This document shows, piece after piece, positions 1,181 to 31,497 of a DNA stretch of 64,000 nucleotides; within the stretch, counting starts at the first letter, position 1; every line of letters starts with the position of its first letter. The DNA is from Chiloscyllium plagiosum (lineage: Eukaryota), in contig NC_057752.1 in NCBI RefSeq assembly GCF_004010195.1, positions 11,255,160-11,319,159 on the forward strand, read 5' to 3'. The notes beneath the pieces are model-generated. The model was not told the DNA's origin and made no database searches. It saw only the letters and a list, made by a program, of their open reading frames with translations. The position numbers and the translations under genes were made by a program.

Positions 1181-1299
1181 AAAACACTTCTGTTTATATC
1201 TGTTAGCCAGGCCTCCCTGATTGGACCAGACGAACAGCCCTAATCAGGGAACTCATATTCTAAGACATACACCTGGCTGACCCCATTACAATCACTACA

Positions 1300-6890: not shown

Positions 6891-6944
6891 ATCCCATTTG
6901 GAAAGAATGTCTTCTGTTGTAGGAGAATCTAGCACTGGGGATCT

Positions 6945-7148
6945 CAGATATCCCAATCCAATCTAGTCCCACCTGCCAGCACCTGGCCCATATCTCTCCA
7001 AACCCTTCCTATTCATACAGCCATCCAGATGCCTTTTAAATGTTGCAATCATACTAGCCTCCACCACTTCCTCTGGCAGCTCATTCCATACATGTACCAC
7101 CCTCTGTGTGAATGCCGTGCTGTACATCTCTATGACTATGACTCTATG
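6945..7148 (-). mobile_element. Young CR1 3' end pieces with (CTATGA)-type tail
   Basis: ORF 6963-7157 FTQRVVHVWNELPEEVVEA...GRWD is near-identical to other copies in the window. Confidence 0.8.
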
Positions 7149-7345
7149 AAGTGTCACCCTTTAAGACAAAGATGAGGAGAAATGGGTTCTGTCAGAAGGT
7201 GGCGAGTCTTTTGAACTCTCGCCCTCAAAAAGTGGTGAAAGCACTGTCTTTGAAGGCAGATTTAGATAGCTTCTTGGTGAGCAAGATGATAAAAGCTTAT
7301 TGGCAGTAGGCAGAGAAATGTGGAGTAATCAGATCAGTCATAATC

Positions 7346-7480
7346 CTGATGAAGGGTCACTGAACCTGAAACGTTAACTCTGTTTCTGTCTCCACAGATG
7401 CTACCAGACCCGCTGAGTTTCTTCAGCAATTTGTGTTTTTGTTTCAGATCTCCAATATCGGCAGTTCTTTGTTTTATTTC
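7346..7480 (+). mobile_element. Penelope-like terminal repeat fragment with hammerhead-like core, inside a CR1 tail
   Basis: CTGATGA (7346-7352), stem, GAAAC (7368-7372), then acagatgct...gctgagtttc as in related cassettes at 31498 and 36409. Confidence 0.65.
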
Positions 7481-9631: not shown

Positions 9632-10037
9632 GTTTGAGAAATTGGACATCACTCCTAAAAGTGCACAGAAGATCAAGCCAGTTCTAGAAAGATGGCTGAC
9701 AGAAGCAGAAATACGACACCGTGCGGGCATACAGAACCTCACTGAGTTCGTGGGTAGTGAACCTTCAAAGAAACGCAAACGACGCACATCTTTCACACCA
9801 CAGGCCCTGGAAATCCTTAACGCCCACTTTGAGAAAAACACACACCCCACAGGTCAGGAAATGACAGAGATAGCCGAGCAGCTGAACTACGACCGAGAGG
9901 TGGTTAGGGTGTGGTTCTGCAACAAGAGGCAGACTTTAAAAAACACCATCAAGAGACTGCAGCAGAATGACACGGCGGGAAGAGGTTCAGTTGAACAATT
10001 ATCGGACTCCGCAGTAAACGCTGCTGGAACAGGCTGA
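9632..10037 (+). CDS. POU6F2: Last coding exon of a class VI POU homeobox transcription factor (end of POU-specific domain, linker, homeodomain, C-terminus); POU6F2-like sequence, but in the POU6F1 syntenic position
   Basis: Acceptor ttAG at 9630-9631 (phase 2). Translation FEKLDITPKSAQKIKPVLERW...KKRKRRTSFTPQALEILNAHFEKNTHP...VVRVWFCNKRQ, TGA at 10035-10037. WFCN is the POU homeodomain signature. The upstream exon was not found in the window. Confidence 0.93.
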
Positions 10038-12195
10038 CCTACAGAAGACTCTTTCAGTGAGTTGTTCCAATGTTTTTATAAATAACACTATGAGGATCGT
10101 TTAGAAGGTAATGGCCCAGCAGCAAAAGTAGACATCCCCAGATCACTGCATCTCTTCGGTCTACTAAGGCATATTGTGGTATACAGCCACATGGATGGAG
10201 CCATTAGAGTGAATTACAGTAACATTTAGGAGTAGTACATAAGCTGCTGCATAATTCATTTTGTAGCACCCACAGTCCTTCAGGTCAAATGTCACAGTCA
10301 GTTATAGTCTCCCTTCTCCTGTATCATGTTACTTCGACCTTCTGAACAACTAAGCATCTCTGATACCTATCCAACTGTGCAAGGTTTGCCTTGAGGGGTC
10401 CACACCCTGTAAAATGATACATTGGAGGATGTTACAAGTTGCAATCTAGCTTTCCGAGGACTGAACACATTTATCCTGTGAGTTCTGAGATTTGTATCAG
10501 CCAGTTTTGATCTTTAGTCTATACCTGGTTACCTGACCTCAAGCAGACAGCTGTAGCAGGTGCTACAATAGACCTGGGAATCCCGGAGTTGAACAAGAGG
10601 TGGGGAGAACAAAACGCAATATGTCTCATTGCTGCACAATGATCATACCAGAAATGTGCATATGTGGAAGTCAGGTGAGAAACTAGGCTCAACTGTGGCC
10701 TTAATTAAACACACTTCCCAACTGGACTGGCACGAAAGGGTACGGTGAGGGGATGAAGTGCTAGAAATGGCAAAATGCACCAGCTACCATGATGTTAATG
10801 ACTGCAGGTACTGGAGTGGGTGAGTGTCCTGCTATGGAGAGATGGGAGACTTGTGTTGATCTGTAAATTGGGGACCTATGATGTTGATTGGATCCTGGAT
10901 TTTAATTGATGTACAGGTCAATAAGATTGTTTGAGCAACCTTTGGGCATTGGCTGATGATGTGCTGAAAATAGAGGGGTCTTAATCTGAAAAAAGCTGCA
11001 ACACTCAGTTCATTGTGGACTGTGATTCAATGACCACTGTTTGCTTTGAACTGTTTTTTGAAGAGTGTTCACCAGCTCATTGAAGAAGCTGTTTATGGAT
11101 CTTGCTCCAGCTTCATTCTATTGGAGTGAAGAGGATGAGCAGCTGCACCAAAGGCTCGATGAGGGAACTGCAGGTGCACCAGCAATAGAAAGGGAATGTA
11201 TATTAACTACAGGCCACCCCCACTCTAATGAGCCTTCATACTAAGGCTCAGTCTCCTTGGCCTTTTATTAGGAGCAGTGTTTCTAGACACACAAAAACCT
11301 TCTCACTTGGGTTGTGAGAATTATCAGGTTCTGGCCGTTCTATCTCACTAAGGTGCTAACTCGGAATGCTAGCCTCTGCGCTGGTACCTGAAACACATGT
11401 ATTATGTGGTGGTGCATCTTCAGGACAGGTGATTTCCTCCAAGCAATCTTCATCCTCTAAGGTTATGTTCTGTCATGGTGATATGCAGCACCTGGAAGAT
11501 GGAAGAAAGGGTAAACATTTAGTCAGTGAGAAAATGTAAATGTCCATGTGTAGCATCTTACTGGTTGATAAGTCAAAGTGGCTGAACGTGCAGTTGGTTA
11601 TATAAATTGAAATCAATCACACAGCTCGATGGAACCGCCAACCTTGTCATCAGCAATGCTGAGAATTTAGCTGGGTTCTGTTCTGTCAGGTATGTCCTCA
11701 TCTGTCAGGCTCACTTCAATTAAAGCTGGGGTTCCCTATATTGGTCTTGGCACTGTCCGGATTACCTTCATTACCTTCACTCTCCCCTTGTAGCAAGGAT
11801 GTTTGCTTCCTCTGAGTGTAGTGTGGAAAGTGATAGGTAGAATCAAACAACAACAGAAGAGTGGATGTCAGGCAGTTATGGATAGTGGCCTCAAAATGCA
11901 AACCAGCCATCACATTTCCCTACATTGAAATAGAGGCTCCACTAAAGAAGGCAGTAAAGCTCTTCAGAGCGACCTGAGGATGGGAAAGTCACCGTGGAAA
12001 TACAAGTTCCTTCTTCCAGTGCAAATTGAGAAGGTGTGCTGTGTGTGCCTCAGACTTAATGAGATTGGGTCATTGGCAGCAGTGAGGGGAAGGAGAGAGG
12101 GGGACAGTCACCCTTGATGCAGGGTCAAGACTTAGTGTGAATGCAGTAGGCCAGAAAATAGAATGAAAGCAAGTGATGGGTAGACAAGGACATGT

Positions 12196-12475
12196 GCTGA
12201 CCTTTCCTGACCTTATCAGGTGATTAAACAAGTTCCTATAGTGGATTCATAAGCTTGAGTTGGACTAAGCATGTAAATGCAGCAGCCAAACATTTTCACC
12301 ATGCAGGTTGAAGTCACATTTGCACCTGTATCATGACAACAAGCTGTATTTAAATTACGTCCAGCTGATGTGCTTCTATGTCGTGCAGTGCTGCATTCTC
12401 GTAGCCCTGTGCCACCATTGCACACCATGTTCCCCGGTTTCAGGTAAAAACTGGGGCCACAGTGTTGTCATGGCT
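12196..12475 (-). pseudogene. Possible fossil of a Harbinger Myb/SANT-like gene
   Basis: Minus strand gives PAW*K..AAA and, in another frame, HYRNLFNHLIRSGK|GTCAGC, resembling the W..VA...QCRKKFNDL.RS.K motif followed by a splice donor. Confidence 0.35.
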
Positions 12476-14670
12476 CACTTGAAGAATGGCTATTTGGGTC
12501 TGGGAATGTAAGGGAAACTGTACCCAACAAGGAGTTCAGGTTTCCAGGCCAGGGTGGGAGAAAATTACATCAGCCACTTTTATTCCTTGTGTGGGTTTCA
12601 CTTTGTAATCCTCTCATTTCTCTGCTTTACTGCAGTGAGCAGCGTCCATGAGCAAGCATGACTGAGAAGGATGAAAGTTTACAGGAGGTTCATTTTTGGT
12701 TACATTGTAATTAATGCAATCAGTCGGAGAAAAGCATCACCTGCGATATTTTGAGATTAGGTTCATAATGTAAAATTAACAACCCTTCAAAAAGTTATAA
12801 ATATTCTTTCAAAACCATGACACTGATATCCAAAACTTTAGAAGACCATCACAGCTCTGACAGCGCAAATCACCTTCTTAAAACAATACTAATGTCCGAC
12901 TTTGTTCTCTATCAGGATAGGATAGCATATGTTCATCTTTCCAAATCTGATTTCCTATCCAAATTCATCCTTTGAATGAGCTTTCCTGAGCTGGGAAGGT
13001 AGGTAAGGCATTAACTTCTCCAAATCAACAGGAAATCCATTTATTGTAAGGTGAAACAGTGCCATGTATTAGCTTATGTCCTCTCTGTTGTGAGATGCTC
13101 CACTTAATGGAGAAAAATCACTCTTATTTGGTCAGTCCAAAATAGAAACTCATTTATTAGTAGACAACATGAGAGTTTATGGGATTAAAGTTACAAAGAC
13201 TGTATGAAATGGCTCGAAGACCCAACGAGAGGTATTATCTGGAGCTACATTTGGAAGACACTGAACAGTGGTTTCCTGGGTCAGCCAGCTGTTCAGGCTC
13301 GTGGAATGTTTCACATGCAGTGGAACAGATCTTGATTTTGTGCAATGGCAGCTCTCCTAATGTATTATTTCCAATGACGTTAAGTTGCCAATTGGTTATC
13401 ACCATTTTACACAAAAGCACAAAGCCACAATTACCTACTGTCCTTTTTTATACCATTTCCAGAAAAATTACAAATTGGAATTTTTGAGAAGACATTTACC
13501 ATATGGACTTCCTATGGCATAATATGTACAGGGTGATGCCATCACACCAACCCTGTATTGCAGGATTGCCTTTTCTCATTTATAATAAACCAAAATACTA
13601 AATATGTGACAAAGATGTGACGTGATTGCATTTGAGGAGCAAGTAACTGCATTGGGAAGCCTCCTGGTAGCACCTGAACATCTATTGCAGTAGTAATCTG
13701 ATATTTATATACTTTTTTTTAACGGAAAAAAGTTACTATTTACTCTAAATGTAAAGTATTCAACATTAAAATGCTATGGTTCGGATACTCTGATTAGAAT
13801 ATCTTGCCCCAGGGCCAGGTCAGTATGTAGCCACTATCCTTCCTACCATCGCAGAAGAGACACGAGTTGCAGATTTTTATGGATGTATGGGTTTAATGAG
13901 GCAACATGGTTCATGTTTATGTGCATCGTTGGTTAAATTTGTTTCTGAATTTTGTGAACAACTATCCCTCCATCCTCAGCGTATGTGAGTCTTTTACAAA
14001 TTGAATCTTGGGGTTTGACCTGATTCCAACAAGTCCACATTCATTGACCATCTTTAGTTGTCCCGAGGGCATGAAGAATTAACCATACCGTCTGAGACTG
14101 GAGTCCCAGAATTGTTGTTCTGGCAAGAAACTGAGGTACAGTTTACAGAGTTATTTGGAGACATGGCAATAACAGATAGAAAAGGCTTGCCTGTCTGTCT
14201 AGCCTGCCCCATATAACTGCAAAGTGCTACATGTCTCTATACAGTCACTCCCTACCCACCTGAAGCTGTATTATTTCCTGGGAGAAACCAATTAAAAACC
14301 CCAAACAATTGGGAGAAGGAAGGAAAATTTGTGCTTGACCCCTCTAGACAATCAGACATAGACTAAGAGGTTTCATCAACTCCAATTTATATGACTGACT
14401 ACCTACCTTGTGCACAAGGTGATCATCATTGCAGCCCAAAATCAATCCAACTTTCTTGGAAAAAATTAAGTGAGTCAGCATTCATTGCACCAACTTGTTC
14501 CATGGTTTCATTGTTCTCTGGGGCAGAGAGGAACTGCCCAAAGTTCTCCCCAGTTCTGGTCCCACAGAGTTTGGAAGCATTGACCCTGGGCCTCCCTAAC
14601 CTGTCATGTTGAAATAATTGACCCAAATAAACACCAACCAGTTCCTTCATGAATCTATATTCAGCAAACT

Positions 14671-14760
14671 GCCAGCAAGCAAGCAGCAAGCTAAGCAAGC
14701 AGGCAACAGCAAGCAAACAGCAAGCCAAGCAAGCAGCAAAAGCCAGCAGCAGCAACGGCA
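14671..14760 (+). repeat. Degenerate (GCAA/GCA)n low-complexity repeat
   Basis: gcaagc aagcagcaag ctaagcaagc... This produces spurious Leu/Ala-rich and Gln-rich ORFs. Confidence 0.85.
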
Positions 14761-16683
14761 GTATCCAGTGATAACAACCAAGCAGCGGGCTGAGAGCATA
14801 CAGGCGTAGTAGGGACAGCAGGAGGAGCACAAGACTTCTGAATTGATTTGGAAACTTAAAGCTCGACTGTATTGCCAACTCCCACAGCCCCATTGTGTTG
14901 CCACCTTTGCTTATGCCCCCAATAATGCCAGCTTAATGGAAAAGCTCACTATATTGTTGCCACCATATTGCTCTCACAAGGCAATCAGTATTACTGGAAC
15001 AGGCTGTTGGAGTCTGCTACAGTCACAGTGGTGCTTTTTGATGTGGTGCTCCAGACACACTTGGTCCATTTTCATCACCTCCTCTCTGAAAGTACTGTCT
15101 TTTATTCTGATACACTATATCAAGAGCCCTTCTCCAAGTATGAGCCTAATCAAGGAGTGTTGCCAGCTTATTTCATCACAAGGGCATCAGAGATCAACTG
15201 ACTTAAATGTCCACAAATATGCATTTACCATAGGATTGTCATCAGGAACAGCAGTTCTATTTATTTTTCTAACACAGGAATTCTCAGACTCATTACCATG
15301 CATGGGCTGTTGAAAGATTGGCACAGACCAGGCATCAAGCTTAGGACTGTCTCATTTTGTATTACTGAGCAGATGCTTAGGCAACAACAAACATATTCTG
15401 ATGCAGTGGCATTGTTGTGCATAAAATAGTTATAAATAAAACACACAATCATGGGATACTTTATCCAATAAACCACACAGTATACCTTTAAGTGATATCC
15501 TAAAATCAAGATCTAAATAAGGAAAATAATGAGTTCCAATCTAATTAATGAGTACAACATTTTTTTTGCACAGTTATTTGCTCCTGCGATATTTTGGACA
15601 AATTATATATTTTTTCATGTGATGTTCAATGAAGGTTTCTGAATGCAGTTTAATTTTATTCCCTCCTTTCATGAAATAGCAATAAATGGTCAGCTTTAAA
15701 TGGGCTGTGAACTGACACACAGGGCCCCTGATGGTCATCTGGGTAAAAGCACTGCACAACATTGATCGAAGCCATTTGGACACAAAGGTTCTCGGTTGAA
15801 TCAGCAGTCTGTGTTGAATTAGCTGATCTCAACCAGGCAACAGGAGGACCAAGGAACAGCTGGGTGAAGGACAAGACCAAGACAAAGTAATCTCCTGGTC
15901 AATCTGGAAATGCACAGATTCAGGTGTTGGACAAGAACAGGATCAGTGTGGACTATGATGTTGCTGTATTGAATAGTCTCCTACAGTTGTGGCTAGGATT
16001 TCCTGATTCTGTCCTTGCCAACCCACAATTTTCTGCCATTCACTTGAAGAGGTGGGAAACTGCAATTTGGCAAACTCAGAAACTGAAAGCCTGATACATC
16101 TGTGCATGTGTATTTGGGCAAATTCCCATCCCACCAAGAAGTGAGAAATTTTAGGCAAACAAAAACTTCTTGAGGAAGACAAATGCCTAGGAGTGATTGT
16201 AACGTCACTTCTTGCTCAATGTAGGAATATCAAGGTGTAACTATAGGTTTGAAACTGTTTCCTCCTATCTGAAATTTGCCTAACCTATGGTGTGAAATTC
16301 CTGAGGTAATTCTACACTGCTTATTTTAGGATATTAATATTGGAGATATTTTATAATTTTAATAAATGCAGTAGTTAAAATAATGTTAAGATTAGACCAA
16401 GCCTCTGTTACTATGGTGGCAGGAAGGAGGCACAAGATTTTAATACAAAATTGCTGAAGGACATTCAACTTAATGTTATGGCAGAGCTACAGAATCTTTT
16501 CTTGGATGCAAGTAGTTTTCAGATATATTTATAGATATATTTGATGAGTTATAAGTCATTTTAGGCTTTTTCAGGGTTTATTGCTGTAAGTATTTCCAAA
16601 GTAAATCAACTGAAGGATTTGGGGTAAAAAAGACAGTTGTATTGATATAGCACTTTTCAAAACCATCAGACATTTTCAAGTCT

Positions 16684-16951
16684 GGGTGCCACAGTGGTTA
16701 GCACTGCTGCCTCACATCACCTGAGACCCAGGTTGGATCCCAGCCTTGGGTGACTTTGTGTGGGTTTTGGCTGTATGGGTTTCCTCCCACAGTCCAAAGA
16801 TGTGCAAGTAATGGATTGGCCATGCTAAATTTTCCATAATGTCCAGGGATGTGCAGGCTAGGTGGTTCAGCCATGGGACATACAGGGATGGGAGGGTTTG
16901 TGTGGACCTGATGGGCCAAATGGCCTGCTTCTACACTGTAGGGATTCTATG
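16684..16951 (+). mobile_element. tRNA-derived SINE (HE1-like)
   Basis: Head gggtgccacagtggttagcactgctgcctcac, degenerate B-box, cccacagtccaaagatgtgca core and CR1-like tail. Confidence 0.8.
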
Positions 16952-19509
16952 GATAAGCTCTTTGCAGCTAATGATGCCGTGAAGGTTTTAACTAGTGCAG
17001 ATTCTAATTATTCTGTCATGTGAATGAATGATCGCAGTCTGTCGACAAAAGTGTGGGAGGGCTGGAGATTGTACTCAGCCCACCATGAAGGGGATTGTAG
17101 ATGCTGTACCAATCTACTTGTTACAAAGGCACCAGGGGTAGCAGTCAGCATGTCATCAGAGGGGAAGTAGAGGTTAGAAAGTAGGTTGTGTCCCTGCACA
17201 ACCTATGATGAGAGTGTCGTGGAAGGAATGTAATCAGTATGTCAGAAGGTTGGCTTTGGCTGTTATGAGGTAAGATTACCTGAGATGTAGAACCAACTGC
17301 TGACTTCCAATCATCTGTTTTACACAATCGGACAAAGTCAGGATTGACAGATCAGTTCCGCTATGATGTCTTCCAGTTCATTGTATAGGCCCACACACTT
17401 TGGACAAGCCACCAGAGGGAGTGGCTATAGTTCAGGCCTCAAGATGGACTACTGCGAGTCCACTTTGATTTGAAATGCCCAGAGAAAAACATCACTGGGG
17501 ATATAAGAGGTGTGGTGGGTGTGATGTGAAACAAAAACTGTGCATGCAGTTGTCTTTTCCCACTAAGCAATTCATGCATATATTAGCTAATTGGGAAAAT
17601 GTGGTCAGCAACTTAATAAAGGGAGCATAACGTTCTGAGTTGTGTATAATAGGAAAAGACTGAGAAAGATAACATGAGGAAATGAGAACTGTCACATAAA
17701 GCCGATTAAGAATATAATTTCCTTAAATAATAGGATGGAGAAGACAGTAAAAGTTTCTTATTGTTGGTTTCAAATGGGCACCCATTCATGCTCATGAGAT
17801 GTCATTGCTAGAGGTGGCATAAGCTATCAGTAGCAAAGCTATGAGTGAACATATGCATTCATTACTAATGAACTATATTTGTTAGTTACATTTCATATGC
17901 CTATTCTATTTATATTGCAAGTGCAAAAGAATTTTTATTGAAATAGAAATTTGTTTTCGTATTCTTTCATTTGTGTTTTGGAATGATTTGACAAAATCTG
18001 GTAGACTTCTGTTCTGATTTTAAAGAAAGCAGAAATGTTGCTGTAAATCCTCACTCATAGCCTCCACCTTTGAAGGGGAGTGAAACAACAATTCAGATTG
18101 ACTTACTTTGGGCAGAGTCCTGAATTTATGAGGTGAACTACTGTAACAAGTATTGGGAGCTAACAAACTATAAGTTGTGGATATAGTGATTGTGGTGGGA
18201 TGTGATCATTTCTAGATACAGGAACAACCTGATTGGCTTTTTCTAATCCTATACAAAAAATATGGAACGAAATATTGATTCTGTCAATTACCTGGATGAA
18301 TGATATATATCATAATCTTCGTCTGTTTATTCCAAAAATCCCTGAAAAAGCAGATAAAGAAATCTGTGCATCTATGTCCATATGCATGTACAAAGACATG
18401 TAACATGGCGAACACAGTGGAGTTTCTTCACATGTTGTAAACTCCATGATTTTAATATTTTTTTTCTTGTTGTTGAAGCTAATTAGTTCCTTAAAAACAT
18501 TTTGATTTCCTTTCATCGGTTGTGGAAGATTGCTGAAATAATTAAAATACATGATATGCAGTGAAACCTGTCTTTATTAGTGGAAAGAATGCCACAGCTT
18601 TCTCAGATATGCTGCAGAAGAACTACATTTATATTTTAAGTAATATCGAACTGAACCTTTATAAAGTATTGATTTTGCTAAGGGAAACCTCTTTCGAACA
18701 GGAAGCTGGCAGCCACGGAGCGTCAGTTTTCACAGAGGCCAACACTCCAGAGATAAACAATGTAACTCTAACTTGCTGCAAATCCCATCCTGTAAACTAC
18801 AGGGTGTTTTTTTTTTTTAAGAGCTGTGAAACTGCCTGCATCCAAGCCCGACTGGCATGAACCTCTGACGGTAATTTCCTTCCAAACTCCAGATAATCAT
18901 ATTTCACTCTGGCCATATTAACCTGACTGAATGCAATCTCTAATGTGTTGAAATCACAGAGCAATGAAATTTGTAAAATGAGATTTTTTAAAAAAAAACC
19001 TGCTGCTCAGTACTCTGAACAACTCAAATAAAGCAATGCAGTCATCAGCGTTCAGTTCATCAGTATTGAAAGTGGCATATTTGATTTGCTACAACATCAC
19101 ACTCCATTTTTGTATTTACTAAAAATTGTAAGTAGTTTAAAATATACTCAAAATAAGATGAAATGGATGATTATTTTTTAAAAATGACTCCCTGACATGA
19201 AAGGGTGCAATAAGTACATGATCTCTTTATGACTAATTGTACTGTCTTTTTTCTTTGTTGCTGAGTTTAAATTCTAAAGATTGTAATTAATAGTCAAAGA
19301 AATCAGTAACAGAAAAATTCCCCGGGTCTGCAAGCAATATATAATTGTGAATAATGGTCTGCTACTAATAATTTGTGGATAGAAGCTGAAAGAAGAATAA
19401 TAAAGCATTATTTTAACAGTACAGAACTAAACATTTGTGTTGTGTTAACTTATTGCATTGAACTAGATTGCTCATTTGATAAACTCCCATTTACCTTGGT
19501 AATTTGTGG

Positions 19510-21860
19510 GTTAGAACATAGAATATTACAGCGCAGTACAGACCCTTCGGCCCTCGATGTTGCGCCGACCTGTGAAACCAACCTAAAGCCCATCTAAACT
19601 ACACTATTCCATTTTCATCCATATGTTTATCCAATGACTATTTAAATGCCCTTAATGTTGGCGAGTCCACTACTGATGCAGGCAGGGCATTCCACACCCT
19701 TACTACTCCCTGAGTAGAGAACCTACCTCTGACATCTGTCCTATATCTATCACCCCTCAATTTAAAACTATGTTCCCTCGTGCTAACCACCACCATCCAA
19801 GGAACAAGGCTCTCACTGTCCACCCTATCTAATCCTCTGATCATCTTCTATGCCTCTATTAAGTCTCCTTAAGTCACCTAACGAAAACAGCCTCACGTCC
19901 CTCAGCCTTTCCTCGTAAGACCTTCCCTCCACACCAGGCAACATCCTGATAAATCTCCTCTGAACCCTTTCCAATGTTTACACATCCTTCCTATAATGCG
20001 GTGACCAAAACTGTATGCAATACTCCAAGTGCGGCCGCACCAGAGTTTTGTACAGCTGCAACATGGCTCTGAAACTCAATCCCTCTCCCAATAAAAGCTA
20101 ACATACCTTACAACCCTATCAATCTGGGTGGGCAACTTTCAGGGATCTATGCACATGGACACAGAGATCTCTCTGCTCATCCACACGACCAAGAATCTTA
20201 CCATTAGCCCAGTACTCCGCATTCCTGTTACTCCTTCCAAAGTGAATCACCTCACACTTTTCCACATTAAACTTCATTTGCCACCTCTCACCCCAGCTCT
20301 GCAGCTTAGCTATGTCCCTCTGTAACCTGCAACATCCTTCAGAACTGTCCACAACTCCACCGACCTTAGTGTCATCCGCAAATTTACTAACCCATCCTTC
20401 TACGCCCTCATCCAGGTAATTTATAAAAATGACAAACAGGAGTGGCCCAAAACAGATCCTTGCAGTTCACCACTATTAACTGAACTCCAAGATGAACATT
20501 TTGCATCAACCACCACCCTCTGTCTTCTTTCAGCTAGCCAATTTCTGATCTAAACCACTAAATCACCCTCAATCCCATGCCTCCATATTTCCTGCAATAG
20601 CCTACCATGGGAAACACTATCAAACGTTTACTGAAATCCATATACACCACATCAACTGCTTTGCCATCATCCACCTGTTGGTCACCATCTCAAAGAATTC
20701 AATAAGGTTTGTGAGGCACCACCTACCCTTCACAAAACAGTGTTGACTATCCCTAATCAAATTATTCCTTTCTAGATGATTATAAATCCTATCTCTTATA
20801 ATCCTTTCAAAACTTGCCCACAACTGAAGTAAGGCTCACCGGTCTATAATTACCAGGATAGTGTCTACTCCCCTTCTTGAATAAGAGGACATTTGCAGTC
20901 TTCTGGCACCAGTCCTATAGACAATAATGACATGAAGATCAAAGTCAAAGGCTCTGCAATCTCCTCCCCAGCTTCCCAGAGAGTCCTAGGATAAATCCCA
21001 TCTGGCCCAAGAGACTTATCTATTTCCACACTTTCCAGAATTACTAACAACTCCTCCTTGTGAACCTCAATCCCGTCTAGTCAAATAGCCTGTATCTCAG
21101 TATTCTCCTCAACAACATTGTCTTTTCCCTGTGTGAATACTGATGAAAAATATTCATTTAGCGCCTCCTATCTCTTTGGACTCCACACACAACTTCCACT
21201 ACTGCCCTTGACTGGTCCTAATCTTATCCTAGTCATTCTTTTATTCCTGACATACCTATAAAAAGCTTTAGGGTTTTCCTTGATTCTACCTGCCAAAGAC
21301 TTCTCATGTCCCCTCCTGGCTCTTAGCTCTCTCTTTAGGTCCTTCTTGGCTGACTTGTAACTCTCAAGCGCCCTAACAGCCTTCGCGTCTCCTCTTGACA
21401 TAAGCCTCCTTCTTCCTCTTGACAAGAGATTCAACTTCTTTAGTAAACCACGGTTCCCTCACTCGACCACTTCCTCCCTGCCTGACAGGTACATACTTAT
21501 CAAAAACACGCAGTAGCTGTTCCTTGAACAAGCTCCACATTTCAATTGTGCCCATCCCCTGCAGCTTCCTTCCCCATCCAATCCATCCTAAGTCTTGCCT
21601 AATAGCATCATGATTTCCTACCCCCACAGCTATAACTCTTGCCCTGTGCAATATACCTATCCCTTTCCATCGCTAAAGTAAACGTAACTGAGTTGTGGTC
21701 GCTACCACCAACGTGCTCACCTACCTCAATTCTAACACCTGACCAGGTTCATTACCAATACCAAATCCAGTGTGGCCTCACCTCTTGTTGGCCTATCTAC
21801 TACTGTGTCAGGAAACCCTCCTGCACAATTGGACAAAAACTGACCCATCTAAAGCATTTG
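19510..21860 (-). mobile_element. CR1 LINE, 5'-truncated, about 2.3 kb, frameshifted
   Basis: Minus-strand ORFs carry [59 protein letters not shown] and TQGVVRVWNALP. A (TTCTA)-like tail sits at the left end. Confidence 0.92.
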
Positions 21861-23314
21861 AACTATGTCTTTCTAATAGAGGGAGGACAATCGGTTAAAT
21901 ATAGTTTGAAAGTTACCACTCTGCTAGTTCTTTCTACAACAAATACAAACTGACAGAAGTTACATTAATGCCATGAACAAGCATTCAAAGATATTCCACA
22001 TAACTACAATGCGTGCAAATCACTTTCAACTAAGTACGAACACAATGTTATCAGTGAACTTAAAATATTCAATTCTTCCATATTGCTCACTCTTGCTCTC
22101 ATTTTCTGTTGTTCACTAAATTACTACCGGGCCAAGGCAAACTTGATTACATAACTGTCCGAATGTTTGAAATGAGAAAAGTTATCGGGGACATCTAAGC
22201 TACATTACTTTGTCAATAACATAGCGTGGTTCTCTTAAATTCTCATTCCAACCTGCACAACTTGCTTTCAAAACTTTTTTTTCTGAGGGAGCGTAAGATA
22301 TGTTTATCTGATAAACAGGTATCTTTCCCTTGAAGGTGACAGCATTGTCACACTCTGTGGTAAATTACCTTGTTTTTATAACGATAGGACTCCCCCAGTT
22401 TTGAATAATATTCTCCATTCTCTTTCTGTCTGTGGCTGGAGCAACAGGATGAAATGAACTACTTAGAAATCCACAAGAGCAGCTTGGAATAGTTGTATGT
22501 CTGGTTTTCACTTTCTCTAGAAAAGCAGCTGGATTATGCTTGATTTCTCTCCATGTATTCCCCTCTGTTTCTTCTTGCTGAAGATTGAATAGAATACTGA
22601 AATCACTATTTCCTTTGCAAAGCACTGTACCCAAAATACAAGTTTAACAGCTCTGTACAAGCACCAAATTCAAAAGTAAATCCAATTATTAATGTGGCAA
22701 ATCCCAGTATATATTCCCTTTTTGATTCCTCTTTCAGGTCATAAAGCATTTACTGGCTGAACTGCCAGTCAATCTTCTGTTCCCCTATCACTCCAATACT
22801 GCTCTGCAACCAGCTATCTCTGGGTAAACCCCTTACCATTCAGCCGTCCTACACAGAATTTAAATCTGGAATAAATGCAGTGAATCTCCTGTATTGATAC
22901 CAGATGGTCACCAGGTTCATTTGACTGTAGAATGTTTATCTGAAAATGTACAGAAATAATTTCCAACTATCCAGTTAAAACAGGGTCTCAGTGAATAATC
23001 GCACTAAGGAGTCCTGCGCTGAATTAATCTAGTGCAAGGTTGTACTCAGTAGCAGAGTGGAGCCAGTTACCACTGATGCTGAGGCTAGGGATACCATCAT
23101 TTTAAAAGCTTGTCCCAAGAAGCTCAAAAAACTCTCCAGTATTACCTTTCAACACTTCACATGCTCTGCATAAAATAAAATGTGTTGCAATCTAATGTTA
23201 AATTGTCATTGTCGAATACTTGTAAATGCAAAGTATATGTTACCATAGTCAGAGCTGATAGCAGCACACACCACCATTCCCTTTGAGAACTCCAGACTCC
23301 AAAGATTCAAATTC

Positions 23315-23950
23315 AAATAGAGTCATACAGCATGGGAACAGACCCTTTGACCCAACTCATCCATGCCGACCATGTTCCCAAACTAAACTAGTTCCATTTG
23401 CCTGCATTTGGCCCATACCCCTCCAAACCTTTCCTATCCATGTACCTGGCCAAATGTCTTTTAAATATTGTACCTGCACCTGCATCTACAATTTCCTGTA
23501 GCAGTTCATTCCACATATGCACTACCTTCTGTATGAAAATGTTTCTCCAAGATCCCTTTCAAATTTTTCCCCTCTCACCTTAAAATTATGCCTTCTAGTT
23601 TTGAAGTCCCCCACCCTAGGGAAAAGACCTTTGCTGTTCACCTTATCTATGTCCCTCATGATTTTATAAACCTCAGTAAGGTCACCCCATAACCTCCGAC
23701 ACTCCAATGAAAAAAGTCCCAGCCTATCCAGCCTCTCCTTATGACTCAAACCCTCCAGTTCTGGTAACATTCTTGTAAATCTTTTTCACATCCTCTCCAT
23801 TTTAATAACATCCTTCCAACAGCAGGGTGACCCGAACTGTACACAGCACTCCAAAATATCTGCCATTTCTTGGCCCAGTTGATCAATATCCCATTTCACT
23901 CTTCGATAGCTGTCTTCATTGTCCACTATACCACCAATTTTGGTCATTGA
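23315..23950 (-). mobile_element. CR1 3' fragment
   Basis: ORF 23522-23770 (ERLDRLGLFSLECRRLWGDL) plus CR1 tail. Confidence 0.85.
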
Positions 23951-24094
23951 AAGCAACCATAAAAATGTGCTAGATTTGAATAACACATTTGAAAATAACT
24001 TTGTTGTATGTTCGACAGAAAAATAGTGCTACCAACAATTTATTTGTTTGAAAGGTGCTTGGCTCCTTCCTCCAACTTTTCAGGTCCCAATGGT

Positions 24095-24215
24095 AGCCAC
24101 GATGTGGAGTTGCCAATGTTGGACTGGGGTGGACAAAGTCAGAAGTCACATGACAGCAAGTTGTAGTCCAACAGGTTTATTTGAAATCACATGCTTTCGG
24201 AGCACTGCAGCAAAT
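24095..24215 (-). mobile_element. Penelope-like terminal repeat fragment
   Basis: Similar to the 42845/43218/62405 repeat family (gtgttggactggggt..., tagtccaacaggtttatttg, gctttcggagc). Confidence 0.6.
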
Positions 24216-24589
24216 CAGGAACTCCCATTGTCGGTTCAGCATCCCATTAAGAATTGGATTTGCCGCTGATCGCAATTCTAAGCTCCAAATGGGGGATACC
24301 ATTGTCTTCTTCAAATGCACGCTCAAAACCAGAACACAAGGCTGCCACTCTAATTTTCTGCCATGTATTTGGGGCAGAAACCTCTGCTGCTCCTTTCCAG
24401 GTGTGGGTTACCTACCCCAATGTTTCAAACAAGCTCACCCCATAATTAGAAAAGGGACAGATGGCGTTGTCAGCTGATACTAGTAGTCACTCTGCTATAA
24501 TTCCAAAGCCAGACTGGAGCTCCAATAATGTTTTTCACCTACTTTGAGGGAGACATGAAGGCAGGAACACATTAAGCATGCCTCTGTGA

Positions 24590-25065
24590 ATTTGAACAGC
24601 ACTAAAGCTCTGGTGCCTGTTTCCTAACTTGCATCAAGTCCCATTCTCTCATTATCACTACCCATGCTCACTCACATTGGCTCCTAGTCCAGGTGATGCC
24701 TAGATGTTATCATTCCCATCCTTGCCCTCAAAACCCACCATCTCTCCTCCCTATTCTTGGAACCTCCTCCAGCTCCATAACCCTCCAGGACCACTTAAAC
24801 GCCTTGAATTCTAGCCTCTTGTGTATTAACAATGTCCATCACTTCACCATTGGGGGCTATGCCTTCAGCTGCTCAGAGCCTAACCTCTGGAACTCCCTAT
24901 ACCCCACCACCATCACCTCCTTCTTTAAGATACTCTTAAGACCTATCCTCTTGAATAATTTTTGGTCATCTCAAGTGACTTGGCATCAAATTTTATTTGA
25001 CAAGACTGCTTGTGAGACACCGTTGACCACATGAACTGCTTTATAACTATAAGTTGTTATTGTAG
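24590..25065 (+). mobile_element. L2-like LINE 3' end
   Basis: Translation includes HWL..., IGGYAFSCSEPNLWNSL and SFFKILLR, typical of the L2 C-terminus. Confidence 0.6.
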
Positions 25066-25189
25066 GAGATCTCCATAGGCATTGCTCATTTGCTGTCCAA
25101 GATCGATACTGGGTGGGATTTTACACAGGTTTGAGCAGCAGATGCTATGGCATGATGTGTGCCATAATCCAATGAGAAGTCTCACAGAG

Positions 25190-25512
25190 GTTTATAAACT
25201 CATGAGAAGGTGAATAGCAAAGGTCTTTTCGCGAAAGTAGGGGAGGTCAAAACTAGGGGACATATTTTTATGGCGAAAGGAAAAAGATTTCAAAAAGAAA
25301 GTGGTTTGTGTGTTAAATGAATTTCCAGAGGAAGTGGCGCATGCAGGTACAGTCACAACATTTGAAATACATTTGGATAAGTACATGAATGTGAAATGTT
25401 TGGAAGGATATGGGCCAAATGCAGGCGGGGGGACTAGTTTAGTTTGGATACATGGTTGGCGTTGACTAGGCGTACGGAAGGGTCTATTTCCATGTGTATG
25501 CTATGACTCTAT
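25190..25512 (+). mobile_element. CR1 3' fragment
   Basis: CR1 3' end with ctatgactctat tail. Confidence 0.8.
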
Positions 25513-25527
25513 AAGTCCAGTGAGGCC

Positions 25528-26060
25528 TATAGAGTCATAGAGATGTCCAGCACGGAAACAGACCCTTCGGTCCAACCCGTCCATGCCGACCAGATATCCC
25601 AACCTAATCTAGTCCCACCTGCCAGCACCCGGCCCATATCCCTCAAAACCCTTCCTATTTATATACCCATCCAGATGCCTTTTAAATGTTGCAATTGTAC
25701 CAGCCTCCACCACATCCTCTGGCAGCTCATTCCATACACGTACCACCCTCTGCATGAAAAAGTTGCCCCTTAGGTCTCTTTTATATTTTTCTCCTCTCAC
25801 CCTAAACCTCTGCCCTCTAGTTCTGGACTCCCCCATCCCTGGGAAAAGACTTTGCCTATTTACCCTATCCTTGCCCCTCATGATTTTATAAACCTCTATA
25901 AGGTCACCCCTCAGCCTCCGACGCTTCAGGGAAAACAGCCCCAAACCTGTTCAGCCACTCCCTATTGCTCAAATCCTCCAACCCTGGCAACATCCTTGTA
26001 AATCTTTTCTGAACCCTTTCATGTTTCACAACATCCTTCTGATAGGAAGGAGACCAGAAT
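25528..26060 (-). mobile_element. Young CR1 3' fragment
   Basis: ORF 25609-25944 (GLFSLKRRRLRGDLIEVYKIMRG...GRWD) with tail. Confidence 0.9.
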
Positions 26061-26929
26061 TTCTCAACATTAAAAACATTTCGCTCCATCTTTAATGCTT
26101 TTGCCAAGATTCTCACTAGGCAGCAGTGAGTTGATAATAGATGGGGATTAAAGCTTGTTAAATGCGATATTAATGCCACAACTCACCTCATTAATAATCA
26201 CCTGGGACACTTTGCACTCAGGCACAGGCACCCAGCTCATGGATTGGACCAGGCTGCATCTCTGTAATTTTCACTCACTCTCTAAGATCTTGCTCACCTA
26301 GTGCCTACCTGCATGTTTGCACAATCCTTGTCAAGCCTTGCCTTGCCATGCAGTACCAATTACACGGTTAAGAGGGCAAAACATCCTGCTGTATGATAGG
26401 GTGCTATATCAATTTCACATGTACACAGCTTATACAGTAAACACACTCAATGTGCATCAAGCAAGTAACAATGACTCAAACTCGAAGGGGAGCAGTCCTC
26501 TGCAAAATCCATGCATCAATCAGGGGGTCCTGGTGAAGAAGGGCAAAGGCAGCCTCCAATACCAATGCAAGCATTTGGCAGCAGCGAGCTCAGTCATGGA
26601 ATCCGTGCATCGAGAGAGTCGGTCACAGTCAGTCTGATTGCTTAAGAGCAATATCCAGGAGTGGGTGGATGTGTGTGTGTGTGGTGGGAGGGGTACTAAT
26701 GTGGTCAGGGAAACTTACAGCCATCGGTGATACTTCTCATCCTGAGCTGTCATAGACAGACAAACAACCAAAAGGAAGGTCAAGACAGTGCAATCTCTAG
26801 AAATATATCACAAACATACAGCGCACCATCACCTGTGCCACAAAGTGCCCTCAATATGTTTTCTTCATCCTCTGCCTGCCACAATGCTTGTGTACTCCTT
26901 GGTTCTGTGAGAGTAGAGAGGTTACTAAG

Positions 26930-27787
26930 TGACAGGAACAGCCTGAACAACAGGGAGCAGTAGGAGGGTCAGGCAGAGGGGGTACCAAGGGACAGGAACA
27001 GCCTGAACAACAGGGGGCAGTAGGAGGGTCAGGCAGAGGGAGTACCCAGGGACAGGAACAGCCTGAACAACAGGGGGCAGTAGGAGGGTCAGGCAGAGGG
27101 GGTATCCAGGAACAGTCTGAACAATAGAGAGCAGTAGGAGGGTCAGGCAAAGGGGGTACCCAGGAACAGCCTGAACAACAGAGAGCATTAGGAGAGTCAG
27201 GCAGAGGGGGTACCCAGGAATAGGAACAGCCTGAACAACAGGGGGCAGTAGGAGGGTCAGGCCGAGGGGGTACCCAGGGACAGGAACAGCCTGAACAACA
27301 GGGAGCAGTAGGTGTGTCAGGGCAGAGGGGGTATCCAGGAACAGGAACAGTCTGAACAATAGAGAGCAGTAGGAGGGTCAGGCAAAGGGGGTACCCAGGA
27401 ACAGCCTGAACAACAGAGAGCATTAGGAGAGTCAGGCAGAGGGGGTACCCAGGGACAGGAACAGCCTGAACAACAGGGAGCAGTAGGAGGGTCAGGCAGA
27501 GGGGATACCGAGGGACAGGAACAGCTGAACAACAGGGGGCAGTAGGAGAGTCAAGCAAAGGGGGTACCCAGGGACAGAAACAGCCTGAACAACAGGGGGC
27601 AGTAGGAGGGTCAGGCAGAGGGGCTACCCAGGGACAGGAACAGCTGAACAACAGGGAGCAGTAGGAGGGTCAGGCAGAGGGAGTACCCCGGGACAGGAAC
27701 AGCCTGAACAGAGAGCAGTAGGAGGGTCAGGCAGAGGGGGTGTCCAGGAACATCCTGAACAACAGAGTGCAGTAGGAGGGTCAGGAA
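26930..27787 (+). repeat. GC-rich minisatellite, 60-bp unit with shorter variants, about 14-15 copies
   Basis: Unit gggacaggaacagcctgaacaacagggggcagtaggagggtcaggcagagggggtaccca, visible in register across the 60-nt lines. Confidence 0.97.
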
Positions 27788-27860
27788 GCTCCGGATTTGG
27801 GCACTAAATCTCAGTGCGATTACTAAGAATGATGCACAATTGAATGGTGCAAAGACAGTC

Positions 27861-28190
27861 CAGCTGTGTGAGAGGCACCGTCAGAGAAATTTGAGGATGT
27901 GATGGACTGCTGTCACTTTCTGTTCCCACTTTCTCCAGAAGGACGTGCATCCAGATGGACTGGAAGCTAATTCAATGCCTGCATCTGTGAAAAGCACCAG
28001 GGCAGTGAATTTCTGCACTGGGTTCTTTCCAGGGCGCCTATGGAGACGTGTATAGAATATTGGCCTTTGTCACTCACAGATCGATCAGGGAGAGTACTAA
28101 TGTCCAGGTCAGAGGAGGCAGTGAATTTGTTGGAGTCACAACGACCCCAAGAGATACGCTGCCATCATGAGGTTTTGACAATTCACAGTT
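27861..28190 (+). pseudogene. PIF/Harbinger (HARBI1-like) transposase fossil, N-terminal part
   Basis: Frame from 27861 reads QLCERHRQRNLRM*WTAVTFCSHFLQKDVHPDGLEANSMPASVKSTRAVNFCTG. After a +1 shift at 28023 it reads SFQGAYGDVYRILAFVTHRSIRESTNV...EFV, matching the recalled P.AVKV..ALNF.A.GSFQ...GD..GISQ...HR.I..VT pattern. Confidence 0.65.
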
Positions 28191-28626
28191 CATAGGGGCA
28201 CTTGCTTAACGTGAACTAAACCTTTGATGTGTGTGTATTACCCGAGGAGCTCTCACACACTCTCACCCACTCTCAGGGACCACGTGTTTGTTCCCACTCA
28301 GCATTTGCAGGATTGGTTCCTTGGTGACACACTGATGACCCCAGGACAGAGGTAGAGGGTTCTGGTGAATCACAAAGCTACACAGCATAATATATCTTTT
28401 ATTTAAACTTGATATCATCTTTAACTTCATTGGAGAGCCAGGAAATGTGCATCCTTCTCATAGACTCTTTCATTTGCAATGGAATTTATCTTTTTCAACA
28501 GCTCTGAAATATCTCCTTTAATGTCAGTCAAATGCTAATTTACTCTTAACCTTTAAGCTATTTTCCCAGTCCAATGTAATTAACTCTGTCTTAATAACTG
28601 TCATCACCATTGTTTAAGTTCAAGAA

Positions 28627-28803
28627 TAGAGTCATAGAGCTGTACAGCACAGAAACAGACCCTTCAGTTCAACTCATCCACACTGACCGGACATTCCTAT
28701 TTGACCGAGTCCCACTTGTCAGCACTTGGCCCATATCCCTGTAAACCCTTCCTATTCATGTACCCATCCAGATGCCTTTTTGATGTTGTAATTGTACCAG
28801 CCT
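28627..28803 (-). mobile_element. CR1 3' tail fragment
   Basis: tagagtcatagagctgtacagcacagaaacagaccc... is the reverse complement of the CR1 tail. Confidence 0.8.
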
Positions 28804-28807
28804 AAAC

Positions 28808-29370
28808 CTGTACAGGACATTGGTTAGGCCACTGTTGGAATATTGCATGCAATTCTGGTCTCCTTCCTATCGGAAAGATGTTGTGAAACTTAAAAGGGTA
28901 CAGAAAAGATTTACAAGGATGTTGCCAGGATTGGAGGATTTGAGCTGTAGGGACAGGCTGAACAGGCTGGGACTGTTTTCCCTGAAGCGTCAGAGGCTGA
29001 GGGGTGACTTTAGAGGTTTACAAAACCATGACGGCAAGGATAGGACAAAGTCTTTTCCCAGGGGTGGGGGAGTCCTGAACTAGAGGGCATAGGTTTAGGG
29101 TGAAAGGGGAAAGATATAAAAGAGACCTAAGGGGCAACTTTTTCACACAGAGGGTGGTACGTGTATGGAATGAGCTGCCAGAGGAAGTGGTGGAGGCAAG
29201 TACAATTGCAACATTTAAAAGGTATTTGGACGGGTATATGAATAGGAAGGGTTTGGAGGGATATGGGTCGGGTGCTGGCAGGTGGGACTAGATTGGGTTG
29301 GGATATCTCGTCGGCATGGACGGGTTGGACCGAAGGGTCTGCTTCCGTGCTGTACATCTCTATGACTCTA
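28808..29370 (+). mobile_element. Young CR1 3' fragment
   Basis: ORFs 28820-29083 (VRPLLEYCMQFWSP) and 29100-29291, with tail ctatgactcta. Confidence 0.9.
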
Positions 29371-30439
29371 AGTCTTCAGTCTAACTCATTTGTCCACATT
29401 TGGGTCTCAGCTTTCTAATGATAGGTCAGGAGACAAGTGGTCCGAGTAGAACCCAGATCGAACGTTGGCAATCTGATTGTTCCTAATCAGTGCCGCCTGA
29501 TAGTACTGTCAACAACTCCTTCCATAATTTTGCTAAAGAATGAGAGCAGACTTCTAGGCCAGGTTGGATTTGCCTTACATTTTGTGGGTAGGATGTACTG
29601 AGGCCATTTTCGGTATTGTTGGGTGCATGCCAGCGAAAAGGTTTGTAGGCTAAATGGTTTCCTTTTGGGCTGTATTGACTGTATGATTATAAAATGTACT
29701 TTGAAATTTGACATTTAGCTCTGCCCATGTAAATGTTTACTGTGAGAGATCTGGAAAAAATACGTTAGCAGTTCCACATCACTGCCCAGAATACGTACAC
29801 TGTTTTCCAGCGTTTTTTTTTAAGTCTCAGCTTAATTCCAGAAAGACTGCTTTTACGTAAGCACTATTCAATTTTATGGAACATCTTGAAATGTTTCACA
29901 ACCACCTTTTAAATGTAATCACTGATTCTTTTTTGGGAAACGTGGCAGCCAACCTCATAATAAAGTGGATTTCTTCTCATTCAAATAGTGCTCTTTTATG
30001 ACCCCTCTAAACAGTCCGACAAGATACTGGGTTCAATGCTTCGTCTGCAAGACAGCATCACTATCAACCTCAATAACCCTCTTTTCCAGCTGTGGTGAAT
30101 TCCATACTTTGCCAGTCATGTTAAAATGCCTACACAACTATGCTGCAATTTGAAAATTTCTTGCAGACTCCGTATTGATTTTACTGCTAAAAAGAAAGCT
30201 ACTCAAAATATCGTTTAGTCGGTGCTTCACTGTTTACATCGAGATCAAGTACATTTTTGAACAGAATGTTCCATCAGTCACTAGGGATATTTTTCAACTT
30301 CATCTGTCAGCAGTGTGGGTCTTCCTCCATGAGGAGAGTATGTCCTCCCTGATGTTGGGTCGGAAAAAGCAGCAGTTGTGGCGATGTCGTGGTTGTTTAG
30401 CCACTGAACACTGACTGAATTGACAGGTGAAACAGTGTA

Positions 30440-30971
30440 ATTAGCGAGGAAAGCATCTTGGGGACAAAAATGGCGCAGACAAGAATCTGAGAGTCTCTTG
30501 GGGTTTTTTTTACGTAGTGTGGGTACTCCTCATCATTGAGCCAAATTGTGGAATTTGTAGAAAAAAACAAAATCCTTTTCTTGCTCGTCACGTTACTCAG
30601 TTAGGAAGGAGCAAATCCATCCCTCCGGCGGCTTGTGATAGGAAGATTCATTATGACGTCAAGGAGAGCAAACACGCCTGATTCAGATTGGCAGATGCCA
30701 TTTGATTGACTCGTGCAGCAGCCAATCAGAGTGACGTGCGTCCCGACCGGCTCCCAGCGGCGCCATCTTTGATGGGTCGGACATGGCGCGAGGCGATTGA
30801 GTAGAGTGAGTGCGTTCTTCTTTCTGGGTTCGGAAGTTTCGGATTCCCGGGCTTTCACTCAGCCTCTTCCGCACACTGGGGGAAAAAGGGCCGCTGTTCT
30901 GAGCGGTTTTACTTCCTCCGGAGCGCAACTTGTTTCCGACTCGCATTACTGGCCTTGATTTGTGTGTCGCC
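30440..30971 (+). promoter_or_regulatory. CpG-rich promoter / 5'UTR of the TFCP2-family gene
   Basis: Raised CpG density; CRE TGACGTCA 30654-30661; ATTGG 30687-30691; AGCCAATCAG with CCAAT at 30722; TGACGTG 30732-30738; YY1-like GCGCCATCTTT 30760-30770 and AAAATGGCG 30467-30475; ETS CGGAAGT 30831-30837. No TATA box noticed. Confidence 0.8.
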
Positions 30972-31093
30972 ATGGCCTGGGCGCTGAAGATGCCGATGCC
31001 GGATGAGGTGATTGAATCTGGGTTGGTGCAAGATTTCGATGCCAGTTTGTCCGGAATCGGTCAAGAATTGGGCGCAGGAGCCTATAGCATGAG
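30972..31093 (+). CDS. TFCP2: First coding exon of transcription factor CP2 (LSF/LBP-1c; TFCP2/UBP1 family)
   Basis: Strong Kozak gtcgccATGG. Encodes [40 protein letters not shown] plus AG, then donor GTATAT at 31094 (122 nt, phase 2). Matches the recalled TFCP2 N-terminus [41 protein letters not shown]. Confidence 0.92.
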
Positions 31094-31497
31094 GTATATG
31101 TTTTATATGTGCATGTAGTTAGTAAGCGGTGTTTAATACAAATGTAGAACCTACTCTCTGGGTATTGTGAGCTGAATTCCATTGATGCAAACCTCGATTT
31201 CCACAGGTAGAAGGGTATGCTCGTGTTTACAAGCTCGAAACCCATTGAAGCTTCAAACCCACATTACCAACATACAAGGTATGTCTACTTCAGACGGACC
31301 GTACATGTTGGTAATGAACTTTACTTTTAAACATTGACTCCTGTATTGCCTCAGGGTTCAGCTTCCATTTCCTCCCCACCCTCAGCCCCGCATCTATTGT
31401 GAAATGATTTGTGCTATTCAGCGTTGAAGTACGACACGATTACCAGCCACCTGGCATCCGATCTCATGTGGGAATGGGTCATACAACCAGGTTCTAT

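Follow-up and report, generated by a model that had tools for sequence, protein, structure and literature searches.

The window analysed here, a stretch of 64,000 nucleotides from the bamboo shark Chiloscyllium plagiosum, holds exons of two neighboring genes on the same strand. The last exon of a POU class 6 gene lies at 9632..10037 (+), is read in phase 2 and encodes 134 residues between an acceptor AG (9630-9631) and the stop codon TGA (10035-10037), comprising the end of the POU-specific domain, the linker, the homeodomain and a C-terminal tail. Its peptide is 100% identical to the NCBI entry for POU6F1 of C. plagiosum (P0002), Pfam recognizes the end of a Pou domain (PF00157) and a Homeodomain (PF00046), and human POU6F1 scores best among PDB structures (3d1n, E = 1.6e-52; next POU class at 5.2e-20), so that a POU-specific domain and a class VI-type POU homeodomain place the gene in class VI. 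Bamboo shark POU6F1 is an ordinary gene, already annotated by NCBI under that name; no POU6 coding exons were found upstream in 1-9631, the alternative terminal exon described below aside. The exon encodes the DNA-binding end of a POU transcription factor of class VI, ca. 600 residues long. In such factors, the POU-specific domain and homeodomain clamp an AT-rich, octamer-like site, and it is through the long N-terminal part that they act on transcription; by analogy, the shark protein may do the same and would probably bind DNA like human POU6F1 and POU6F2.

Two further ends of the gene are predicted by NCBI isoform models. An alternative terminal exon at 7483..7627 (+), bounded by AG at 7481-7482 and TAA at 7625-7627, matches models X6 and X8 at 100% identity in tblastn (P0529 and P0530), and the products of these database models are predicted to be devoid of the homeodomain. 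A short one at 15680..15710 (+), preceded by AG at 15678-15679, matches model X10 over 10/10 residues (P0528). The stretch 10038..15707 (+) is a probable 3' UTR of POU6F1, to judge from the contigs of sequencing run X2, which has a different organism code and whose nature as RNA is a guess: they run near-continuously from 9630 to 15707 with zero depth at 8376-9551 and 15726-16000, and an AATAAA motif at 15681 lies near the end of their cover, a picture that is suggestive only. Run X1 is uninformative on splicing because it covers the intron too, and in the raw RNA runs X20 and X21, 1 read and 0 reads, respectively, fell on 7200-16000, too few to test expression. No splice joints were seen, and none of the listed datasets containing the region is on record as RNA, so that the alternative exons and a POU6F1-TFCP2 read-through are candidates only.

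The second gene begins with a coding exon of 40 codons plus 2 bases at 30972..31093 (+; ATG at 30972, donor GT at 31094). Its residues agree fully (100%) with the TFCP2 rows of C. punctatum/C. plagiosum (P0374) and Callorhinchus (P0373) and to 93% with most of those of bony vertebrates, and neither UBP1 nor TFCP2L1 is named among the 120 matches listed. Judging from this exon and the database names, the downstream gene is TFCP2; motif and tblastn searches found no later TFCP2 exons in 31094-64000. A CpG-rich stretch over its start (30501..31250, strand not applicable) has a GC content of 0.51-0.52 and an observed/expected CpG ratio of 0.93-0.95 vs. 0.28 for the whole window, a base composition that suggests a probable promoter and 5' UTR. 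From the stop codon of POU6F1 to the ATG of TFCP2, we count 20,934 bases, in agreement with the distance of about 21 kb, on the same strand, given by an earlier sequence-only reading of this DNA.

Identity, tree position and synteny of shark POU6F1

In maximum likelihood trees (38/57 aligned rows), bony-vertebrate POU6F1 and the gene of sharks and chimaeras unite in one clade at a support of 100/96, a check that the sequence-only reading had proposed, and POU6F2 forms a separate clade (100/99) that does not include the shark gene. The POU6F1 clade persists at 100/99 when long branches are removed (24 rows) and at 95/96 for the last exon alone; a tree of just the N-terminal part recovers it at an SH-aLRT of 99 and places one lamprey row inside it. 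An AU test rejects placing the shark gene with POU6F2 or outside both paralogs (p = 0.0025); the two tests share an identical likelihood drop of 23.49 and therefore count as one result, for which the cyclostome rows were picked after the tree had been seen. The tree alone cannot separate an ortholog from a sister copy that arose in the second genome duplication and was reciprocally lost, a distinction that synteny alone makes.

The linkage to TFCP2 is widespread. In 11/11 chondrichthyan species with both values, chimaera included, the sequence that carries POU6F1 is exactly as long as the one that carries TFCP2, and the two genes are fused in the same order in five turtle gene models. Human gene lists for 12q13.13 give TFCP2 and then POU6F1 (PMC2359992, PMC2527324), which bears out the earlier statement that the two are direct neighbors at 12q13. 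Mis-scaffolding, which that reading had named as a way in which its own proposal could fail, is unlikely because the linkage recurs in 11/11 independent assemblies.

Counts of POU6 genes per species point the same way. Amphioxus has one Pou6 and vertebrates have two (PMC9953854). C. plagiosum carries a POU6F2 (P0168) that falls inside the POU6F2 clade of the maximum likelihood tree and lies on a sequence of 138,123,871 bases, separate from POU6F1 on a sequence of 16,392,401 bases. Among the matches listed for 19 chondrichthyan species, both types were seen in 13 and one type in 6, and none of the 19 (best 120 or 150 matches listed) showed a third. No extra vertebrate type appeared among 144 new representatives at 50% identity; lampreys show three POU6 types. 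One entry named POU6F1 (P0045) is a POU6F2-type sequence with an insert and was left out. We are highly confident that the exon at 9632..10037 is the last exon of a one-to-one ortholog of POU6F1 (Brn-5/mPOU) that precedes TFCP2 head-to-tail, an arrangement shared with other jawed vertebrates. The sequence-only reading had headed the locus as a "POU6F2-like gene", a title that fits neither its grouping nor its NCBI name, and had left the choice between a third POU6 paralog and a POU6F1 ortholog of ancestral sequence; trees, synteny and the residue states of outgroups favor the latter.

Ancestral states and rate asymmetry

The mixture of POU6F2-type and POU6F1-type residues noticed in that reading is real. 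In three comparisons with each paralog, the last exon matches POU6F2 at 92-93% identity and bony POU6F1 at 79-81%, and its best 120 matches comprise 107 POU6F2-type sequences, 13 of the chondrichthyan gene itself and none of the bony POU6F1 type. N-terminal identity (37-41% to POU6F2 vs. 36-42% to bony POU6F1) does not separate the paralogs and was not counted as support. Across the POU region, 19 sites are shared by the shark gene and POU6F2 and not by bony POU6F1, and at 15 of these 19 the residue is also that of most of the 10 outgroups. Five derived sites are common to the shark gene and bony POU6F1, with one more, the sixth, being ambiguous. Measured against amphioxus, bony POU6F1 carries 11-14 unique changes in this region and the shark gene 1-3. 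The POU6F2-like residues of shark POU6F1 recur in amphioxus and lampreys and are mostly ancestral: the likeness of the shark protein to POU6F2 reflects residues and a tail that sharks, rays and chimaeras retained from the ancestral vertebrate, and a burst of substitutions in linker, homeodomain and tail followed afterwards on the bony-vertebrate stem. POU6F2 is known to have a 36-residue insert in its POU-specific domain (PMC10436210), which is absent from all 12 chondrichthyan POU6F1 rows and found in 18 of 19 POU6F2 rows. Upstream of the acceptor at 9630-9631, there is no AG at 108 bases, and the frame closes after 24 codons (in-frame stop 25 codons upstream).

A rival scenario is hidden paralogy: shark and bony POU6F1 would be sister genes split by the second genome duplication, with the shark gene a third POU6 ohnolog and the POU6-TFCP2 block lost reciprocally in the two lineages. 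The bony POU6F1 stem is long and measures 0.44 vs. 0.15 for the chondrichthyan stem in the full tree and 0.34 vs. approximately zero in the last-exon tree, the tails of shark and bony POU6F1 differ entirely, and the three types of lampreys imply that extra copies existed in early vertebrates. Yet the shark gene's neighbor is TFCP2 itself by its first exon and its matches, POU6F1 and TFCP2 are adjacent in human and turtle alike, and no third type was found among the matches listed for chondrichthyans and no extra one among the 144 new representatives, all of which makes this scenario very improbable and leaves the one-to-one ortholog as our reading.

The abundance of POU6F2-type sequences among the best matches would similarly fit an exon of POU6F2, or of a copy that POU6F2 gave rise to by duplication or gene conversion, that was put beside TFCP2 by rearrangement or mis-scaffolding, as would the "POU6F2-like" label of a whale shark entry (see below). 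We consider this extremely improbable, since a true POU6F2 is present separately in 13 species among the matches listed, the exon on its own groups with POU6F1, the shared residues are mostly ancestral and come without the POU6F2 insert, and the linkage to TFCP2 holds across independent assemblies.

Probable X-linkage and comparison with known POU6 genes

Of 12 species compared with Lee et al., 8 have a POU6F1-bearing sequence whose size fits the published X chromosome, suggesting that POU6F1 of sharks and rays probably lies on their ancient X chromosome. For a possible place of the locus in the HoxC/human 12q13 paralogon, this size fit is an indirect pointer. We found no report of a POU6F1 stem burst or of X-linkage in sharks, and no paper joining POU6F1/POU6F2 with shark, TFCP2 with the elasmobranch X or describing POU6F1-TFCP2 synteny; the X-gene tables of bioRxiv 10.1101/2025.02.26.637739 may list these genes, and the part of the supplementary files that was searched held no POU6F1, TFCP2 or POU6F2 row.

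Stem burst and probable X-linkage are modest points. The useful result is the dating: most of the differences between human POU6F1 and POU6F2 do not stem from the duplication and arose in a burst that came after it, in early bony vertebrates, so that the shark protein is a natural control for the effect of this burst on DNA binding. More tentatively, and as less likely than not, one might propose that POU6F1 function itself shifted on the bony-vertebrate stem through 10 fixed substitutions in linker and homeodomain and a new tail, affecting dimer formation or DNA-site preference, while sharks, rays and chimaeras keep a pre-shift copy that still behaves like POU6F2. In sharks and rays, where this copy is probably X-linked and the X lacks full dosage compensation, its expression would then be stronger in females. 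An ancestral shark POU6F1 beside a diverged bony copy also fits the odd POU6 topology of an earlier study, in which the genes of invertebrates clustered with one vertebrate paralog and not the other (PMC4245813). In the whale shark, the gene is split and NCBI labels its C-terminal half "POU6F2-like" (P0550), a case of best-hit annotation mislabeling POU6 genes because shark POU6F1 kept its ancestral sequence.

Compared with the NCBI models of C. plagiosum POU6F1 (XP_043537963-977), the locus agrees in its last exon (100% identity), its species-specific alternative exons (mapped at 100%) and its TFCP2 neighbor, and POU6F1 of other chondrichthyans is the same gene with nothing different. Amphioxus and other invertebrates have a single Pou6 that shares most "POU6F2-type" residues with the shark gene, but it is a pre-duplication outgroup whose N-terminal part is only 25% identical. 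POU6F2 (RPF-1) resembles the shark gene in its POU region (93% identity) and in having a long tail of similar kind, a likeness owed mostly to ancestral states that were kept, but differs by glutamine runs in the N-terminal part, the 36-residue insert and its location on a large chromosome. Bony POU6F1 (Brn-5/mPOU; PDB 3d1n) is the ortholog by tree and synteny, likewise without the insert and with the five shared derived sites, and the group consensuses are the same at homeodomain positions 5, 47, 50, 51 and 54, which have a role in base contact. It differs by 10 substitutions (homeodomain positions 25, 31, 36, 52 and 60 among them) that are fixed in 14/14 rows at sites where the shark gene still has the residue of the outgroups, and by a shorter, unrelated tail; as expected for a chondrichthyan, the shark gene has neither these derived linker and homeodomain residues nor the short tail.

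The POU6F1 and TFCP2 exons

The POU6 gene in the window is the bamboo shark's POU6F1, an ordinary gene that is already annotated, and not an extra POU6 copy. Its last coding exon starts at 9632, preceded by AG, and runs to a stop codon at 10035-10037, encoding 134 residues that are 100% identical to the end of the NCBI POU6F1 of Chiloscyllium plagiosum. Pfam detects the end of the POU-specific domain and the homeodomain in this peptide, and the closest solved structure is human POU6F1 (PDB 3d1n). Coding exon 1 of TFCP2 follows on the same strand at 30972-31093, 20,934 bases beyond the POU6F1 stop, which confirms the arrangement described in the sequence-only reading, and is surrounded by a CpG-rich stretch (CpG observed/expected of 0.93-0.95 vs. 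0.28 window-wide). We found no further main-isoform coding exons of either gene within the window and, because no TFCP2 exon 2 was found in 31094-64000, TFCP2 intron 1 should exceed 32.9 kb unless exons lie in its N gaps (40160-40276, 41359-41858, and 63063-63112).

NCBI models of both Chiloscyllium species include alternative POU6F1 terminal exons at 7483-7627, adjoined by repeat sequence, and at 15680-15710; those of C. plagiosum match the window at 100%, even at letters where C. punctatum differs, which makes C. plagiosum the most likely source of the window. Models ending in these exons drop the homeodomain and could be genuine truncated isoforms or splicing noise. Elsewhere, four of six long ORFs tested are broken reverse-transcriptase fragments (Pfam RVT_1; 1240-2049, 20119-20466, and 53384-53827 on the minus strand, 39551-39958 on the plus strand), as expected for LINE-rich shark DNA, and a tandem array (60-base unit, ca. 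14.7 copies, 86% matches) occupies 26931-27785, 3 kb upstream of TFCP2.

Phylogeny and the likeness to POU6F2

We aligned 57 proteins and built maximum-likelihood trees on subsets. With 38 rows and 596 columns, eight chondrichthyan and nine bony POU6F1 rows (bony fishes and land vertebrates) form a clade (branch supports 100/96) apart from POU6F2 (100/99), and the support of the former rises to 100/99 once 14 further rows, the longest branches among them, are dropped. The same grouping is recovered from the last exon alone (95/96) and from the N-terminal part alone (SH-aLRT 99, one long lamprey row included). Constraining the shark gene to group with POU6F2 or to fall outside the two paralogs lowers the log-likelihood by 23.49 units (AU p = 0.0025), with identical values that make the two constraints one result and with cyclostome rows picked post hoc from the tree. 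Lampreys have three POU6 types (cyclostome rows P0227, P0230, P0241, and P0366); two of them and a hagfish gene are sister to POU6F2 (98/93), while one Lampetra planeri gene joins the POU6F1 clade weakly and on a long branch (88/77). These placements hint that the POU6F1/POU6F2 split dates to the first genome duplication.

Raw identity of the last exon runs against the POU6F1 reading, with 92-93% to POU6F2 vs. 79-81% to bony POU6F1, and that of the N-terminal part is neutral (37-41% vs. 36-42%). The shark gene looks POU6F2-like because bony POU6F1, the yardstick of the sequence-only reading, is the lineage that changed. At 19 POU-region sites the shark consensus has the POU6F2 residue and not the bony POU6F1 one, and 15 of these states are ancestral, as they are shared by the majority of ten outgroups (four cyclostome, six invertebrate); at six sites it agrees with bony POU6F1 instead (five derived, one ambiguous). 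Bony POU6F1 has ten substitutions fixed in 14/14 rows and a replaced tail. Across 155 columns, relative-rate tests count 1-3 unique changes in the shark vs. 11-20 in bony POU6F1 (p of 0.00008 to 0.022 in 20/20 non-independent tests), with p<0.05 for the N-terminal part in only six of nine tests and in none of the three with bowfin. In the last-exon tree the bony stem measures 0.34 vs. about 0 for the shark, and bony rows diverge little thereafter, which points to one burst of substitution after bony vertebrates parted from sharks and before ray-fins parted from lobe-fins. Unlike POU6F2, the shark gene lacks the 36-residue insert in the POU-specific domain that is described as POU6F2-only in PMC10436210. 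One Lampetra type carries a 56-residue insert of similar ending at this place.

As a class VI POU factor, the protein would be predicted from its family to clamp AT-rich octamer-like sites between two DNA-binding domains that a linker connects. Shark POU6F1, bony POU6F1, and POU6F2 show no difference in the POU recognition helix or at homeodomain positions 5, 47, 50, 51, and 54, which we take to be base-reading, and the three probably have a common core DNA specificity. Bony POU6F1 changed in the linker, homeodomain positions 13-36, 52, and 60, and the tail; an adjoining region has been tied to dimer type (PMC4245813), and PMC10436210 cites a crystal structure in which human POU6F1 is bound as a dimer. 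Given a common core, any shift in bony POU6F1 would be expected in dimer formation or partners.

Linkage to TFCP2 and probable X-linkage

The synteny comparison covers TFCP2 as sole neighbor, identified from its exon 1, which matches shark and chimaera TFCP2 at 100% and most bony TFCP2 rows at 93%; among the matches listed, none of at least 120 rows bears the name UBP1 or TFCP2L1. POU6F1 and TFCP2 lie on sequences of identical length in 11/11 species for which both values exist, a sample that reaches from Callorhinchus to skates. The accessions of the two genes are consecutive in C. plagiosum, C. punctatum, Hemiscyllium, and the older set for Callorhinchus; in Stegostoma and Heterodontus they are not. 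They are neighbors at human 12q13.13 in tables of PMC2359992 and PMC2527324. In the turtle Caretta caretta, five NCBI models (P0160 and P0513-P0516) splice the penultimate POU6F1 exon onto TFCP2 exon 2 with the reading frame preserved. Their products combine an incomplete POU domain, lacking the homeodomain, with almost all of TFCP2, and the fusion implies the same order and strand in this turtle. Because the window junctions 9631|9632 and 31093|31094 are likewise both phase 2, such read-through would be possible in the shark.

Shark POU6F1 is probably X-linked. Lee et al. (bioRxiv 10.1101/2025.02.26.637739) give X sizes of 16.4-28.8 Mb, with 45.0-73.0 Mb for stingray and devil ray X1 and X2, and report that each of the 13 X chromosomes carries an slc11a2-like gene; human gene tables place SLC11A2 three genes away from TFCP2. 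The sequences carrying POU6F1 fit these published ranges in eight species (16.39, 16.41, 19.6, 23.6, 28.3, 28.8, 69.7, and 73.08 Mb) and fall outside them in four (Heterodontus 37.8, Rhincodon 12.2, Amblyraja 8.7, and Leucoraja 8.1 Mb). Incomplete dosage compensation has been reported (PMC12318234, PMC11406177).

Alternative explanations and the number of POU6 genes

Mis-scaffolding of POU6F1 beside TFCP2 is argued against by the recurrent linkage across species, the human tables, and the turtle models. Having TFCP2 as neighbor in sharks, chimaera, human, and turtle also makes it unlikely that the shark gene is a hidden sister copy of bony POU6F1. Of the two origins that had been proposed, a POU6F1 ortholog with ancestral sequence is supported by the trees, the TFCP2 neighbor, and the outgroup residue states, whereas a third POU6 copy is not supported: beyond the complete match to POU6F1, C. 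plagiosum has a separate POU6F2 on a sequence of 138,123,871 bases (vs. 16,392,401 for POU6F1). Among the protein matches listed, no third type appears in 19 chondrichthyan species (both types in 13, one in six). In a library search of at least 150 rows, all vertebrate-like rows among 144 new 50%-identity representatives are POU6F1, POU6F2, or cyclostome types, though a third paralog inside one of these clusters would stay invisible. NCBI represents whale shark (Rhincodon typus) POU6F1 by two separate models on sequence of one length (P0123 and P0550); the first is called POU6F1-like and the second, which covers the C-terminus, POU6F2-like, a naming trap that the window gene also sets.

Shark POU6F1 stands in databases under its correct name and is thus a known gene; our search of literature and supplements, with subscription papers mostly outside it and closed supplements that may list the gene, returned nothing on shark POU6F1, the stem burst, or X-linkage. 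According to PMC9953854, class VI POU genes number two in vertebrates and one in amphioxus, and the window locus agrees with this two-gene vertebrate count.
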